A stretch of 64,000 bases of DNA from a virus: positions 1-64,000 of IMG/VR virus record IMGVR_UViG_3300045119_000157; one strand, given 5' to 3'. Shown one piece after another: positions 8,875-63,801 of this stretch. How positions within the stretch are numbered: position 1 is the stretch's first letter; every line of letters starts with the position of its first letter. The position numbers were made by a program, and so were the translations under genes. The notes under the pieces are model-generated. The model was not told the DNA's origin. It did not search any database and saw only the letters and a list, made by a program, of their open reading frames with translations.

Positions 8875-9167
8875 ACACCACCCGTCCTGCACCGAAGAAC
8901 GATGGTCGCTGGCACGGTGTTCAGCCCGTGGAAGCCCGCGAGGCTGGCCTGCGGTGGACGGGACATCTACCGGGCGACTTGAACACGGTGCATGTGTCCC
9001 GGCGCGGCTGGCGCGGAAGGTGGGCGCGATTCAATGCTGACGCCCGCGGCGGACGCGGCGGCTGGGAGTACGAGACCTGCGTGGACTTGCATCGCAAGCG
9101 GAGCGCGGCGATCACCTGCGGTGAGAAGTTGGCGCGCCGCTGGAACGCGAAAGAGTGTCTGAAGTGA
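8871..9167 (+). CDS. hypothetical protein
   Basis: ATGA-coupled ORF. Confidence 0.5.
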   Translation: MNTTRPAPKNDGRWHGVQPVEAREAGLRWTGHLPGDLNTVHVSRRGWRGRWARFNADARGGRGGWEYETCVDLHRKRSAAITCGEKLARRWNAKECLK

Positions 9168-10078
9168 GCCTCACCGACGAGGCTCTCGACGTGCAGGTCG
9201 AGCTTCTCCGCTGGTTCCACTCGGAACCCGGTGTGCGGTACGCGCAAGCGGAGTGCGACCTCCTGACCGGCGGAACGTTCGAGGCGTACCGCGACGGCCG
9301 AGGTAACCCTGTCGGCGGCGGCGAGTTCTTCCGGGCGATCCTCCGGCAAGGCGCTGCCTACGCGGTGTCCAGCGACGTGGTCGCGGTGATCGACGCGGCC
9401 CGCGAGACGGTCCCGCCGTTCCCGCTGCACGCTACGGACCTCCCGACCGAGGACGGGTTCGTGTGGTTCGAGCAGGCGATCGTGATGTGCGACGACACGC
9501 CGGACGCGAAGCCGATCGTGACGCACGGCTTGTCGTGGTTCACGATCCGGGACATGCACGGCGAGAGCGGACTGGTGATGCTCGGGTGGACGAACCCGAC
9601 CGATCCCCGCGACCACGCCGCGCAGTCATGGACCGGCGACGATGTTCTGACCGCCGCGGGGATCCGGCCTCCCCGCGGGATATGGGCGATGATCATCGGG
9701 ATCTGGCATTTCGATGAGGAGCCGCAGCCGTCGCAGGCGTTCCGGCTGCTGTCCACGTTCCTCCGGTTCATCAACGAACCGTGGCTCTCGGATGAGACAG
9801 AACGCCCGTCCCGTGCGACGGGGCGGAGAGCGGCCAGGGAGCAGCTAGACAGCCCGGTGCGGGTGATCCGCCTGCGGCGTAGCGGGAACCACTCGGAGGG
9901 CGGCACAGGCGATTCCAGCGTGGAATGGTCGCACCGCTGGATGGTGACCGGCCACTGGCGGAACCAGTGGTACGCGACGACCGGGCAGCACCGCCCGAAG
10001 TGGATCCCCGCTCACGTCAAGGGACCGGCAGATAAGCCGCTCGTCGTGAAGGAGACAGTGTTCCGGGTGGACCGTTAG
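9164..10078 (+). CDS. conserved phage hypothetical protein
   Basis: C-terminal WSHRWMVTGHWRNQWY...WIPAHVKGP motif seen in actinophage proteins. Confidence 0.7.
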   Translation: MSLTDEALDVQVELLRWFHSEPGVRYAQAECDLLTGGTFEAYRDGRGNPVGGGEFFRAILRQGAAYAVSSDVVAVIDAARETVPPFPLHATDLPTEDGFVWFEQAIVMCDDTPDAKPIVTHGLSWFTIRDMHGESGLVMLGWTNPTDPRDHAAQSWTGDDVLTAAGIRPPRGIWAMIIGIWHFDEEPQPSQAFRLLSTFLRFINEPWLSDETERPSRATGRRAAREQLDSPVRVIRLRRSGNHSEGGTGDSSVEWSHRWMVTGHWRNQWYATTGQHRPKWIPAHVKGPADKPLVVKETVFRVDR

Positions 10079-10797
10079 ATCCTGCGCCGGGAGATCACGT
10101 ACAGGAGCAGCCCGAGCGCGAACACCGCGAGGCCGAGTCCGATCAGCGGCGCGACGTCGAGGCCAGTCCGAGCGAGCGGGACGGTCGTGACAGTCGGGGG
10201 CGTGGTGGGCGGCTGAGTGCCGATCGTGGTCGCCGCGAGCGTGGTGCTCGTGGTCGTGCTGCCCGGCTGCGTGGTCGTCGTCGGCGCGCTGGTCGTCGTG
10301 TCCGGCTGAGTGGTGGTCGTGTCACAGGCGGGCGGCACGCACTGCGGGTTCGTGACCGGCACCGTCGTCGTCCCCTCCGTCGTCGAGGTAGTCGCCTCCG
10401 TGGTCGACGGCGCGGTCGACGTCGTCGCTTCGCTCGTCGTCGTCGGCTGTGTGGTCGACGTGGTCGCCTCGGTCGTGGACGGCGAGGTCGTGGACGGCTG
10501 CGTCGTCTCCGTCGTCGCCTCCGTGGTCGAGGTCACCTCAGACGTCGTACTGGCCTCTGTGGTGCTCGTAGGCGCGCTCGTCGTCGTTGACGGCTGCGTA
10601 GTGCCTGTCGTGCCTGTCGTGGACGTGGACGGCTGTGTCGTGGACGGGTACGTCGTCGTCGAATGGTGATACGTCGTGGTCGTCGTGCCGTACACGCCGC
10701 GGCACCACGCGAACGCAGGCCCGGCACCGCCGATGAGGATCACGGCCGCGACCGCGAACGCTGCGAGTACGAGGAGGCTCCGACGGCGTTCTGTCAT
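10075..10797 (-). CDS. Thr/Ser-rich (mucin-like) secreted protein with LAXTG sortase sorting signal
   Basis: N-terminal signal peptide (..GAGPAFA), T-rich body, then LARTG, a hydrophobic helix and RRR. Only convincing minus-strand gene. Confidence 0.8.
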   Translation of the reverse strand: MTERRRSLLVLAAFAVAAVILIGGAGPAFAWCRGVYGTTTTTYHHSTTTYPSTTQPSTSTTGTTGTTQPSTTTSAPTSTTEASTTSEVTSTTEATTETTQPSTTSPSTTEATTSTTQPTTTSEATTSTAPSTTEATTSTTEGTTTVPVTNPQCVPPACDTTTTQPDTTTSAPTTTTQPGSTTTSTTLAATTIGTQPPTTPPTVTTVPLARTGLDVAPLIGLGLAVFALGLLLYVISRRRI

Positions 10798-10861
10798 GCC
10801 GCCACGGTACTCCCGCCGGGTAGCCGCCTAAACTTTCCGCGTAATCCCTGGTCAAAGGGGC

Positions 10862-10896
10862 TGGACAGGATCGTGCACCGGGTGTACGTTGTTGTT
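10862..10896 (+). promoter_or_regulatory. class I promoter/operator copy 6 (no ATG at +1)
   Basis: TGGACA-N17-TACGTT; GTGCACCGGGTGTAC. Confidence 0.8.
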
Positions 10897-10897
10897 T

Positions 10898-11250
10898 GTA
10901 AGCGCATAGCAGCCACCGGGTGCGGGTCGCAGTGACGTCCGCAGCAGCCCCGGAGGCAGCGAACAAGGACTTCGGACCCGTGAGGTGCCCTCGCGAGTAC
11001 GCCAGTGAAACGCCCTACGGCGAGATAGCTCCGGTCAGGAACATCGACCGGATGAGCCTCGACTCATGAAGGTGGTGGAGGCCGAAAGGTAAGGGGAGCG
11101 AAGCGGGAGAACGTCCGAAAGTGTGTACGCGGCGAGAACCGGGGAGTGGCCACGATCCGGGGGAGGAAGCGGAAAGCGAGTACGGCGGCCGGACTAGGCG
11201 ACGGCGCCAGCAGCGGGTAGCTCCCGAGGCTGGCGCCTCGCCGCGTTTAC
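10898..11250 (+). ncRNA. candidate large structured ncRNA (~350 nt), family unknown
   Basis: Starts at the predicted TSS; 5' GTAAGCGC pairs with 3' GCGTTTAC; several nested helices; no plausible CDS. Confidence 0.7.
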
Positions 11251-11268
11251 GGGTCATACACACCGTCG

Positions 11269-11292
11269 GGGTAGTGGGCTACCCTGTCGGTC
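11269..11292 (+). promoter_or_regulatory. class II element GGGTAG-TGGG-CTACCCT-N7-ATG
   Basis: Palindrome overlapping a TACCCT -10-like hexamer. Confidence 0.65.
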
Positions 11293-11592
11293 ATGCGACA
11301 GATCCTCAGCAAAGGCGTCGTCGACTCTCCCGGCTTTCTCCACTCGAACGTCACCGTCGAAGTCATCAGCGACGACGACGTCAACATGGAAGCCACGGTC
11401 AGGTCGAAGCAGGGCGTCATCCTCGAAATACTGAACGGCCCGTGGACCCGCGAGGGCGACGCGTTCGTGATCCAGACTGACGCCGGGCAGGCTGTGATCA
11501 GCGTGCAGGTCGGCGGCTGCGGCTGCGGCGGGTCACTGTCGACACCGAAAGCGATGGACGGCGCGGCACCCGGCCAGGGCTACCTTCCGTGA
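11293..11592 (+). CDS. hypothetical protein (GCGCGG motif)
   Basis: ORF after the class II element. Confidence 0.6.
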   Translation: MRQILSKGVVDSPGFLHSNVTVEVISDDDVNMEATVRSKQGVILEILNGPWTREGDAFVIQTDAGQAVISVQVGGCGCGGSLSTPKAMDGAAPGQGYLP

Positions 11593-11882: not shown

Positions 11883-12322
11883 GCACGTACACGGCGGTCA
11901 TGGTGACAACCCCGATGACCGTGGATCCCACAGTGGCCGGGCAGTTGGACACGTTCGATGAGGTGTGGGCGTGCCAGGTGGTGACACCGTCGGGGACGTG
12001 GAAGTTCACGCTCGACGGCGCGGTCATCCCGCCACGCGATGACAGCGACGTCACGGATCTCGTCAACCTGCTCACGCCCGTGACTCCCGCGCCGAGGTAC
12101 GAGTACCAGTGGTGCAACGTCGCGGCGATGAGTCTCATGGAGGAAGGCGCTTCGGGCTGGCGTGTCGTGCCCGGCATCTACCGCAGTGGGGACTACGTCG
12201 ACACGGTCCTGATGGAACGCGTTGTCGCACCGGAGCCGTACGTCGCGCCGGGCGTAGCACCGCCGCTCACGGCCGCTGACCTTCGCGAGGAAGCCGCCCG
12301 AAAGAACAAGTGGCAGCCATGA
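11879..12322 (+). CDS. hypothetical protein
   Basis: GTGA-coupled. Confidence 0.6.
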   Translation: MSTYTAVMVTTPMTVDPTVAGQLDTFDEVWACQVVTPSGTWKFTLDGAVIPPRDDSDVTDLVNLLTPVTPAPRYEYQWCNVAAMSLMEEGASGWRVVPGIYRSGDYVDTVLMERVVAPEPYVAPGVAPPLTAADLREEAARKNKWQP

Positions 12323-13293
12323 GCGCCGTGACGTACATCGGGAACTTCAAGCCTCAGCACAGCACCGAGAACGAGATCCTCCGCGCGCTGAACGCTCTCG
12401 GCCATGACGTAACGATCGTGCAGGAGGACGACGAACTCGGCTGGCGGACACTCATCTCCCGAGTCCACAGCACCACGTCCCTGCCGGATGTGGTGCTGTG
12501 GACTCGTACTCGTTCCCTGTCCGACCAGATCGACGAACGGTTGCGCTGGGACACGCTCTACGCGTGCTCTGAACGGGGCATCCCGACGGTCGGCTACCAC
12601 TTGGACCGCTGGTGGGGCTTGGACCGCGAAGCCGAGATCGCGTCGGACCCGTTCTTCCGGGTGTCGCTGCTGTGCACCGCCGACGGCGGACACGACGAGC
12701 AGTGGAAGGACGCGGGGATCACGCACGCATGGTTCCCGCCCGCCATCAGTGAGTTCGAGGTCGGCTGCGGCACGCCGGTCGACGAGTACGCGTGCGACGT
12801 CGCGTTCGTCGGGTCATGGCAGGGCTACGGGCACGCCGAATGGTGGCCGCATCGGGAACGGATGCTCGACGCAGTGTCCGGCTGGTACGGTGACACGTTC
12901 CGCTGCTTCCCTGAGCCGGGCTGCCCGCGTGTCACGGGCATGGACCTCGCGGACCTGTACGCGTCAGCGAAGGTCGTCGTCGGAGATTCGTGTCTCGTGC
13001 CGGGCGTGGACGGCGTGCCGGTCGGGCGGTACTGGTCGGATCGTGTACCGGAGACACTCGGCCGCGGCGGTCTGCTCGTCCACCCGTGGGTCGAGGGGAT
13101 CTCGTCGATCCTGCCGACGTACTTCAACTATCCGCTCAGTGACATGGACGCGCTGCACGAACGGATCGAGATGGTTCTCGGTTGGACGGAGGATCAGCGA
13201 TCAGGCGTGCGGGCTGCGTGCGCGCAGCGGGTAGCGGAGCGGGACACGTACACGGTGAGGATGAAGCAACTGTGGAACCTCCTCGGCCTGTGA
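12319..13293 (+). CDS. glycosyltransferase (GT-B, CgeB-like)
   Basis: ALNALGHDV, DVAFVGS, LYASAKVVVGDS, YWSDRVPETLGRGG, HTY-like C-terminus. Confidence 0.8.
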   Translation: MSAVTYIGNFKPQHSTENEILRALNALGHDVTIVQEDDELGWRTLISRVHSTTSLPDVVLWTRTRSLSDQIDERLRWDTLYACSERGIPTVGYHLDRWWGLDREAEIASDPFFRVSLLCTADGGHDEQWKDAGITHAWFPPAISEFEVGCGTPVDEYACDVAFVGSWQGYGHAEWWPHRERMLDAVSGWYGDTFRCFPEPGCPRVTGMDLADLYASAKVVVGDSCLVPGVDGVPVGRYWSDRVPETLGRGGLLVHPWVEGISSILPTYFNYPLSDMDALHERIEMVLGWTEDQRSGVRAACAQRVAERDTYTVRMKQLWNLLGL

Positions 13294-20772: not shown

Positions 20773-20807
20773 TGGACAACGGTGTGCACCGGGTGTACGT
20801 TGTGGGC
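20773..20807 (+). promoter_or_regulatory. class I promoter/operator copy 9
   Basis: TGGACA-N17-TACGTT-N6-ATG. Confidence 0.78.
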
Positions 20808-21095: not shown

Positions 21096-21223
21096 GCGCC
21101 AAGTTCATCGTCGTGTGCGACGACTACCGCATCGAGTGCTCGACGTTGGAGCAGGCGGAACGGCGGCTCGCCGAGATCGAGCGCGCCGGTCACTGCCGCA
21201 ACGAGCATCAGATCAAGCCGGTC

Positions 21224-21247
21224 GGGTAGGCGGCTACCCTGCCCGGC
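21224..21247 (+). promoter_or_regulatory. class II element GGGTAG-GCGG-CTACCCT-N7-GTG
   Basis: Seen directly. Confidence 0.65.
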
Positions 21248-23005: not shown

Positions 23006-23029
23006 AGGTAGCGGGCTACCCTCCCGGTC
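23006..23029 (+). promoter_or_regulatory. class II element AGGTAG-CGGG-CTACCCT-N7-GTG
   Basis: Seen directly. Confidence 0.65.
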
Positions 23030-26540: not shown

Positions 26541-26547
26541 ACCCCTG

Positions 26548-26588
26548 TCCGGGTCGCGGCTACTTCCCAGGGCGGTCGCGACCCGGAC
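26548..26588 (+). terminator. stem-loop
   Basis: TCCGGGTCGCG...CGCGACCCGGA. Confidence 0.6.
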
Positions 26589-59296: not shown

Positions 59297-59308
59297 CCTG
59301 CCCCGTCT

Positions 59309-59350
59309 GGCCTGCGTGCCCGTAACCCCCACCCGTACGGCACGCAGGCC
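59309..59350 (+). terminator. hairpin ending the late operon
   Basis: GGCCTGCGTGCC...GGCACGCAGGCC. Confidence 0.65.
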
Positions 59351-59363
59351 AGAAACCGCCCTC

Positions 59364-63004: not shown

Positions 63005-63801
63005 GCAGACGCCAGACCGGGACGCTGTTCTGGCTGCCGGTCATCCTCGACTGCGAAGACCTCGACCCGACCGAGACGCTCCTGCTGGTCGCGATGGCCG
63101 ACCACATCGACGCCGACGACCAGTGCTGGCCCGGCATCGACACGCTCGCCGCCGCAGCCCGTGTCTCGTACCCGACCGCAAGCCGCCGCCTGAAGGCGCT
63201 CGTCGACCGAGGGTTCATCACACGGGAACGGCGGCACAGCCAGCACGGCCACCTGAGTTCGTACACGTACACGTTCGTCCGTGAAGCGTTCGGCCTAGTG
63301 ATCAAATCGATCACTGGTCCAGCGCGCAAAACCGACCCGCCTAGCGCGCACCCTGATGGTGACTGGTCCAGTGATCACCCTGGTGCGCGAGGAACCACCC
63401 AGTCTTTAGAACCGCGTAAACAGAACCGCCCAACCCCTGCGAACAATGCTGCGAACAATGATGCTGTTCGCAAGGCGGCACGGCGGGTAGTCGATGACTG
63501 GTGGGAGGCACGGAAGGCCGCGGGCGTGTCCCCGGCGCAGCCGTACATCGCGGTCGTGAAGATCGTGGACACGGCACTGCGGAACGGTGTGAGCGTGAAT
63601 GACCTCACGGCCGCGTTGCGGGACACGCCGACGGTGACGGGCGCGTCGTTGGAGTTCACGCTGTCGAAGCTGCGCGGCCGGGTGGGGCGTGCGGCGCCGA
63701 ACGTGTCGTCGGCTGCGGCGGAGCAGATCGTGGCGGACTACGCGGAAACGAACGGGAGTCCACGCAACCGGCCGGGTAGCCCACTACCCTTGCCGCCGTG
63801 A
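63001..63801 (+). CDS. HTH replication initiator-like protein
   Basis: LLLVAMAD...CWPGIDTLA....SYPTASRRLKALVDRGFITR. Confidence 0.75.
   Translation: MSRRQTGTLFWLPVILDCEDLDPTETLLLVAMADHIDADDQCWPGIDTLAAAARVSYPTASRRLKALVDRGFITRERRHSQHGHLSSYTYTFVREAFGLVIKSITGPARKTDPPSAHPDGDWSSDHPGARGTTQSLEPRKQNRPTPANNAANNDAVRKAARRVVDDWWEARKAAGVSPAQPYIAVVKIVDTALRNGVSVNDLTAALRDTPTVTGASLEFTLSKLRGRVGRAAPNVSSAAAEQIVADYAETNGSPRNRPGSPLPLPP
63774..63797 (+). promoter_or_regulatory. class II element GGGTAG-CCCA-CTACCCT-N7-GTG
   Basis: Seen directly. Confidence 0.6.

Follow-up and report, generated by a model that had tools for sequence, protein, structure and literature searches.

What does a phage promoter drive when the gene that normally follows it is missing? 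The question is raised by positions 10898 to 11250 (+ strand) of IMG/VR virus record IMGVR_UViG_3300045119_000157, a sequence of 83,578 nucleotides (nt) estimated to be 93% complete, whose first 64,000 nt (64 kb) form the window analysed here. The record contains 20 copies of a promoter-like element, termed class I, and all of them are on the + strand. The copy at 10862-10890 leads into a region of about 353 nt that an initial annotation had proposed to be a large, free-standing structured RNA. The analysis indicates that 10862-11250 is a real transcription unit, poor in open reading frames (ORFs), in an orphan soil phage. The tentative preference is that this class I unit, intact and self-contained, yields a product functioning as RNA, with a small gene only slightly less probable.

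The case for a transcription unit begins with the class I element. Its architecture consists of TGGACA, a spacer with a 15-nt near-palindrome, and TAYGKT. The copy at 10862-10890 is intact, with TGGACA at 10862-10867, a 17-nt spacer, TACGTT at 10885-10890, and the operator-like near-palindrome at 10873-10887. Support for its being a promoter comes from the 20 co-oriented copies, which are placed ahead of gene starts. Each of the other 19 copies is followed by an ORF of 51-567 amino acids (aa) starting 13-36 nt past the core motif, the smallest being 51 and 55 aa. In 16 of these 19 an ATG stands at the seventh base after the second hexamer (+1), and in the other three a leader of 36-57 nt carries a ribosome site of GGAGA or AAAGGTGG type. 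The element at 10862-10890 is followed instead by TGTAAGC, with no start codon at 10897-10899, and only a 49-codon ORF with a GTG start comes after it. It lacks both a +1 start and a ribosome site, whereas none of the 19 siblings lacks both. The description of this copy in the initial annotation as the only good one without ATG at +1 thus holds in substance, since all 19 siblings precede an ORF of at least 51 aa, although three of them reach it through leaders. The possibility that the +1 ATG is merely the start of a short leader was rejected, because the copies at 20787, 25528, 74121 and 74585 have the +1 ATG alone, with no downstream GGAGA-ATG; the leaderless reading put forward earlier is therefore the better one.

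Two other properties of the class I copies may be recorded. The palindrome is followed by TTGTTGTTTG in the 10862 copy only, where the terminator scan calls a + strand terminator-like site (10872-10897; 7-bp stem, 3-nt loop). This site could stop antisense read-through from + strand genes upstream of the minus-strand gene at 10075-10797, or it could be a coincidence. In addition, eleven unrelated cassette proteins (e.g., those at 1373, 7724, 17162, 26638 and 30469) begin with MEKPMS, METPMS, MEKPMA or METPMA. The five or six N-terminal residues are shared because the repeated DNA module reaches about 17 nt into the ORF; past them the proteins have no likeness to one another by blastp.

The other end of the unit is probably marked by the hairpin at 11197-11242 (inverted repeat I14), which has 18 pairs (5 + 9 + 4 bp), arms beginning at 11197 and 11229, and a pairing probability (P) of 1.00. 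Directly beyond it, GCGTTTAC at 11243-11250 pairs with GTAAGCGC at 10898-10905 to form a closing helix of 8 bp, including one G-U, with P = 0.99 in the partition function. Both structures lie exactly where they had been predicted. A helix of this kind arose in 35 of 2000 shuffles when allowed anywhere in 343 nt and in 0 of 2000 when confined to a fixed 22-nt zone; the true p lies between the two figures because the position was chosen after the fact. The closing helix is unlikely to be due to chance. Two other hairpins lacking a U run, at 26547-26588 and 59306-59353 (perfect stems of 12 and 15 bp), each separate a stop codon from the class I promoter that follows it, and in one sibling unit the hairpin is found about 7 nt past the stop codon. 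By position, all three U-less hairpins are likely to be transcription-unit ends. Placing the start at the seventh or eighth base past the -10 hexamer, by analogy with the sibling ATGs, and the end at the hairpin plus closing helix gives a predicted transcript of about 353 nt (10898-11250, + strand) with 137 G, 98 C, 78 A and 40 U.

The composition of the unit is also exceptional. When 200-nt windows of the 83.6-kb genome are ranked by purine content, the top six all fall within 10951-11275, with purine fractions of 0.64-0.66 versus 0.514 +/- 0.037. The 127-nt purine-rich tract at 11070-11196 is frameless, with negative scores in all frames, and folds poorly (z = +1.8; folding is better in 97 of 100 shuffles). 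G makes up 39% of the predicted transcript, and the GC skew just past the promoter reaches +0.27 to +0.28, which places two windows in the genome's top 12. GC content is 0.60-0.70 across the region, with no AT-rich stretch. This strand-specific excess of purines is an oddity that any explanation must cover.

From this anatomy, the lack of a gene of the sibling type, the composition and the pairing of the ends, the following sequence of events may be proposed. The operator-bearing promoter would fire in concert with its 19 siblings. Transcription would begin at about 10897/10898, at the sole copy with no start codon there (leader-bearing siblings aside), and would stop at the U-less hairpin at 11197-11242. 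The first 8 bases would then pair with the 8 bases past the hairpin, so that both ends are clamped. This clamp would shield the transcript from end-dependent nucleases, and a stable RNA of about 350 nt would accumulate. The purine-rich, poorly paired tract at 11070-11196 would be its working surface, most likely as a protein-binding platform or decoy acting in trans. Maintenance of features at the RNA level is suggested by the clamped ends, by the integrity of promoter and hairpin, and by the purine tail of 127 nt in which no frame is preferred. The missing initiation signals speak against a gene, as no sibling among the 19 lacks both. A more specific version of this proposal is that the end-clamped RNA of about 350 nt is switched on with a regulon of approximately 20 leaderless accessory genes, and that its purine tract acts on a host factor as scaffold or decoy, the target being for example RNA polymerase, as with Ms1 and 6S RNA, or the translation machinery. 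Such an RNA might also serve as mRNA for a peptide of 45-49 aa. In this full form the proposal is improbable.

A number of results weigh against an RNA product, beginning with the signals at the two ends. A generic sigma-70 scan requiring at least 4 of 6 matches per hexamer, the expected promoter having two near-consensus hexamers 16-18 nt apart, found 0 sites at the 10862 copy, so that its status as a promoter is drawn from the repeated architecture. The terminal hairpin is GC-rich, as expected of an intrinsic terminator, but no T run directly follows the stem; the only run is the TTT within GCGTTTAC, and the scan calls no terminator there. The fold itself is the next difficulty. The whole region folds to -161.8 kcal/mol in ViennaRNA (z = -3.0), and 0 of 100 dinucleotide shuffles were as stable. 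When the closing helix and terminal hairpin are removed, the remaining body (10906-11196) has z = -0.15, and 28 of 60 shuffles were as stable, indicating that the headline value is owed to those two elements. The 5' and 3' halves scored alone have z = -0.22 and z = -0.69. Once GC content is corrected for, the raw energy is ordinary, with 223 of 1110 windows of the same genome having a lower residual. An arm-to-arm duplex between 10924-10992 and 11091-11192 was matched in 1 of 300 and 0 of 300 shuffles; this test is biased, and it carries little weight because the arms were picked from the fold itself. The claim of a large, free-standing structured RNA thus survives as a self-contained unit, but not as a fold signal independent of the terminal hairpin and closing helix; likewise, the fold z-score is good for the whole region and vanishes for the body.

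Other measures of the fold are mixed. A z of about -2.8 ranks the region second among 23 windows of the genome. Ensemble diversity is 49.8 versus 81 +/- 24 (4 of 60 shuffles as low), and positional entropy is as low in 3 of 60. The motifs on which the structural claim was built are all present: GTAAGCGC at 10898 and GCGTTTAC at 11243, CCGGG at 10916 with CCCGG at 10949, TGCGG at 10921 with CCGCA at 10939, ACTTCGGAC at 10969 with GTCCGAAAGT at 11113, TCCGGTC at 11030 with GACCGGA at 11046, GCCGAAAGGT at 11081, and GCGAGTACG at 10993 and 11176. Of the stems proposed from them, the closing helix, the 10969/11113 helix, the 11030-11052 hairpin and the 3' hairpin were recovered, but the local 5' hairpin and the GCC-GAAA-GGT hairpin are absent from the minimum-energy fold, and forcing them costs +4.3 and +2.0 kcal/mol, respectively. 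The helix formed by 10969-10981 and 11103-11122 (P 0.70-0.90) closes a predicted apical domain at 10969-11122, which contains hairpins at 11030-11052 (P 0.97) and 11056-11082 (P 0.99); this domain alone has z = -1.43, with 8 of 100 shuffles as stable. The reading of the repeated 9-mer GCGAGTACG as an AGUA loop-E motif is not supported, since 824 of 2000 shuffles contain some repeated 9-mer, the level expected by chance. Enrichment is mild for GAAAG (87 of 2000 shuffles) and for GNRA (98 of 2000). The ornate fold, the basis of which is single-sequence folding, is not established. The most over-stable of the 23 sampled segments (z = -3.19) owes its rank to a hairpin at 12460-12506, of 21 bp with 95% complementarity and a 5-nt loop, inside a glycosyltransferase-like gene at 12310-13293.

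Comparative evidence does not strengthen the case for an RNA. No homologue of the unit was found in the collections searched, and there are consequently no relatives in which covariation could be scored. The 495-nt gap containing the region (10798-11292) had no blastn match in 50,697 phage records. Searches with nhmmer and blastn of 95 loci near relatives of the large terminase and of the gene at 9155 gave a best E of 0.39, and the whole records of the five closest terminase relatives gave only one 24-nt match, at E 0.044. The class I promoter pattern produced two single-copy chance hits in viral contigs and two in metagenome contigs. Three patterns derived from the RNA yielded 0, 0 and at least 118 chance loci in viral contigs, none similar by nhmmer or blastn, and one such pattern yielded 0 in genome contigs. 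A covariance model of the core (10969-11122) found only itself in 1.05 Mb. The unit also matches no known RNA family. Rfam 15, with 4227 models that include RNase P, tmRNA, 6S, group I and II introns, riboswitches, GOLLD, ROOL and HEARO, gave 0 matches at gathering thresholds in the 64-kb window. When E was relaxed to 10, positions 10700-11400 gave eight weak matches of snoRNA or small-RNA type, which are noise (10-17.6 bits versus cut-offs of 35-145). The RNase P model had 0 matches in the whole record, and ARAGORN found 0 tRNA or tmRNA genes in the window. The initial annotation had recognised no hallmark of tmRNA, RNase P, intron or riboswitch and had suggested a covariance-model check; Rfam and ARAGORN agree with it in finding no match.

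Several other readings were examined and discarded. Antisense control of class I leaders was ruled out: pairing with the shared leaders (-43.1 versus -44.1 +/- 2.9) is no better than in shuffles, 57 of 100 of which pair as well, which likewise counts against action as RNA. A sponge for ribosome-site sequences was ruled out since GGAG is not enriched, its count being reached in 672 of 2000 shuffles. The region contains no tandem repeats. Insertion of an element resembling a miniature inverted-repeat transposable element was also rejected; the ends match at 7 of 8 positions as DNA, no flanking duplication is seen by eye, and the unit is single-copy.

The strongest competitor to an RNA product, doubtful in itself yet a serious contender, is that the unit is a short mRNA encoding an orphan protein of 45-49 aa. 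The leader of such an mRNA would be atypical, and its 3' untranslated tail, purine-rich and ending in the hairpin, would be unusually long. All 19 other class I copies drive protein genes, and the candidate ORF (10920-11069, + strand; 49 codons from GTG 10920 or 45 from GTG 10932, stop TGA 11067-11069) has properties of a gene that count against an RNA-only product. Its codon-usage log-odds of +0.158 per codon lies within the range of 17 sibling ORFs (-0.006 to 0.616; 2 of 17 lower) and exceeds those of all 48 off-frame ORFs of 40-60 aa (maximum -0.06). The score was reached in 6 of 3000 whole-region and 50 of 5000 local shuffles (p approximately 0.01), and the frame contrast in 147 of 5000 local shuffles. 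Its three frames score 0.13, -0.54 and -0.71, much as in the 55-aa sibling (0.22, -0.53, -0.69). GC at the three codon positions is 0.63/0.55/0.78, the third within the 0.71-0.93 of sibling ORFs, a range that excludes copy 74995, the start of which was mis-picked. Moreover, the 45-aa form is a called gene of the same record in a protein collection (P0004). A translated ORF across the region, named in the initial annotation as a finding that would speak against an RNA, is thus partly present, as a predicted ORF of 45-49 codons with gene-like codons covering 42% of the region.

Against translation, the ORF has no ATG or GTG at +1 and no GGAG-type ribosome site before GTG 10920 or GTG 10932, so it shares gene-like codon usage with the class I cassette genes but neither their start signals nor any frame-conserving homologue. 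The coding signal is patchy, being confined to about 10905-11020 and negative past 11025, and 11 of the 49 codons end in A or T, including AGG twice, AGT, CCT, GGA, TCA and ATA. The presence of the ORF means nothing in itself because an ORF of at least 45 aa arises in 1575 of 3000 shuffles. The 45-aa protein has no true homologue in 5.8 billion clusters or 1.84 billion representatives. Three other hits were rejected as unrelated repeat proteins (one with FN3 repeats, one DUF3330-like and one unnamed repeat; best pairwise match 12 of 30 identities) and are regarded as noise because their E-values are inflated by 5-12 repeated short matches. Finally, a short mRNA leaves the 127-nt frameless purine tract unexplained, whereas in one sibling the hairpin follows the stop codon by about 7 nt. 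Neither an 82-aa minus-strand ORF, with no hit at E up to 1, nor the frame of the gene at 11293 offers another candidate; the latter is interrupted by five stops in the region, and over 10800-11200 GC content differs little among the codon positions.

It is less probable, and on balance unlikely, that the unit is a decaying remnant, i.e., a former cassette gene that has lost its start and 3' part and is still transcribed without function. The weak and patchy coding signal would fit such a history, as would a GC3 (GC at third codon positions) under that of most siblings, the missing start signal, the lack of a frame signal in the tail and the lack of homologues. However, the promoter, the operator-like palindrome, the 18-pair terminal hairpin and the closing helix are all intact, and the tail is the compositional extreme of the genome, unlike average decayed sequence. 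A six-frame comparison with the 19 cassette proteins gave a best E of 0.11, and descent from a decayed paralogue of these proteins was accordingly rejected. In addition, phage genomes quickly purge useless DNA, which counts against a remnant.

A role in cis has a small chance of being correct. The hairpin at 11197-11242 would then attenuate or gate read-through into the gene at 11293 and the glycosyltransferase genes beyond it, in the manner of the short terminated transcripts on which phage antiterminators act (lambda PR'/6S, HK022 put). The order of promoter, structured leader, hairpin and same-strand genes is suitable, and glycosyltransferase genes lie downstream of 11293 in a long co-directional block on the + strand. 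Nonetheless, no Rfam cis-regulatory family matches, and the 11293 gene appears to be built for leaderless expression. A second repeated element, class II, was predicted to begin right after the region and is present at 11265-11284 (+ strand), as a short inverted repeat ending TACCCT, 8 nt before the ATG of this gene. Five copies of class II are known (11265-11284, 21220-21245, 23007-23029, 63775-63797 and genome position 66538), and four of the five are followed, at a constant spacing of about 8 nt, by an ATG or GTG, giving starts at 11293, 21248, 23030 and 63798. On this spacing, the element looks like a second promoter class for leaderless genes. Read-through would serve 11293 poorly because the gene has its own class II element at the usual spacing and no ribosome site.

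The chance is slimmer still that the DNA is the functional element, for example as an R-loop (transcription-activated) replication origin or a protein-binding site, with the G-rich transcript staying on its template. The skew past the promoter and the 39% G content of the transcript are in keeping with an R-loop. However, equal or higher skew is found elsewhere, there are no iterons, tandem repeats or AT-rich stretches, and the site lies among virion and glycosylation genes. That the gap is instead a long 5' leader of the minus-strand gene at 10075-10797 is scarcely credible: it does lie upstream of that gene and the minus strand folds to -146.9 kcal/mol (z = -2.37; 2 of 100 shuffles as stable), but this fold is 15 kcal/mol worse, no class I copy faces that way, and the gene has no need of the gap as a leader because a degenerate class II-like element (10831-10818, minus strand; 13 of 17 matches to the 21220 copy, by eye) stands 20 nt from its ATG. 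Neither neighbour needs the 353 nt, since each has a class II or class II-like element by its start.

The minus-strand gene (10075-10797) is predicted by ORF and translation to encode a Thr-rich protein of 240 aa whose C-terminus consists of LARTG followed by a hydrophobic stretch and RRR; the minus frame agrees with GC content by codon position, and no Pfam family scored above cut-off. The 99-aa product of the gene at 11293-11592 (+ strand), which has no ribosome site upstream, is not assigned a function. Two homologues, P0002 and P0003, were found at 55% and 48% identity; the contigs that encode them are short, at 1050 and 2224 nt. Scans of metagenome, genome and viral collections with the family alignment gave no further match, and cultured phages gave none. 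The locus as a whole is surrounded by virion and glycosylation genes. None of the flanking proteins belongs to a reverse transcriptase, nuclease or recombinase family in Pfam or PHROG, as the RNA of a retron-type or guide-RNA system would require.

Proteins neighbouring the gap have distant relatives only, or none. The large terminase is 53% identical to its best IMG/VR contig match and 33% identical to its best match in a cultured phage. By this weak relatedness of terminase and neighbouring genes, the phage, the window of which has a GC content of 66.8%, is an orphan. Near-identical contigs of it occur in three soil metagenome runs (X1-X3). They show no difference in the covered parts of the unit and are uninformative on covariation. 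The near-identical phage in run X3 carries one extra nucleotide at 11288 and is altered at 11292, 11310 and 11313; these sites all lie past the class II element and no further on than the opening codons of the 11293 gene, and no change falls in the parts of the unit covered there (10714-10921 and 11037-11207). A low-depth contig from the same run (2.33x, 55 nt on the shorter side) connects 10808 to 11246 on opposite strands. This junction is what an inversion of the promoter-plus-RNA segment would give at its left end, or it may be an assembly artefact; no inverted repeat is present at 10808/11246, the nearest being an 8-nt pair at 10818-10825 and 11276-11283. Elsewhere in the window, positions 280-760 are strongly G-depleted and rich in C and A, with the genome's top AT skew, and folding of 353 nt from it gives only -66 kcal/mol; this stretch sits in apparent coding sequence at the left end.

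If the product acts as RNA, its nearest precedent by behaviour, on analogy, is the group of Pleft RNAs. PMC5712189 describes abundant stable non-coding RNAs that actinophages L5, D29 and StarStuff make from the repressor-controlled early promoter Pleft. They were demonstrated by RNA-seq and Northern blotting, map to the end of the genome and proved toxic on cloning (PMC5712189). The unit described here resembles them in a promoter under what appears to be repressor-type control and a length of a few hundred bases. It differs in being known from sequence alone, in lying among virion-region genes and in containing a 45-49-codon ORF, whereas the Pleft region has no ORF longer than about 30 codons; no likeness to the Pleft RNAs was found by blastn against the 50,697 phage records. 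Among the unit's own siblings, the 19 other cassettes, the same promoter and operator-like palindrome head a short unit that stops short of the following promoter, in some cases at a U-less hairpin. Those cassettes, with products of 51-567 aa, have either a +1 ATG (16 of 19) or a leader with a ribosome site (3 of 19), whereas this unit has neither signal and has a 127-nt frameless tail.

Other large RNAs are more distant comparisons. GOLLD and ROOL are 500-800 nt in length. Like them, the unit would be a large RNA of phage or prophage; unlike them, with their many homologues, strong covariation and Rfam entries, it matches neither and has no homologue. Among the defining traits of 6S and Ms1 RNAs are the binding of RNA polymerase and a rod whose large central bubble imitates an open promoter (PMC9130861). 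The predicted transcript shares with them its size class (Ms1 is about 300 nt), paired ends, a long irregular rod and short end hairpins, and the likely host phylum is the same as for Ms1. It differs in having no Rfam match of 6S or Ms1 type at E up to 10, and its rod is no more stable than chance. In the minimum-energy structure the rod is interrupted by small loops and by a single one-sided bulge of 24 nt, and a central bubble is lacking, though a structure computed from one sequence of 353 nt is unreliable.

Two lessons of method follow. A good z-score for the fold of a whole region can stem wholly from a terminal hairpin, and a "non-coding" gap in high-GC DNA may conceal a small ORF with real codon bias. 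The value of the unit hinges on finding the phage or its relatives, because it is a singleton in an uncultivated soil phage. Should the transcript act as RNA, it would offer a clean genetic handle, consisting of one promoter, one hairpin and 353 nt, and would add one more actinophage case to the very short list, the Pleft RNAs of L5 and D29 among them, of stable non-coding phage RNAs without an assigned function.

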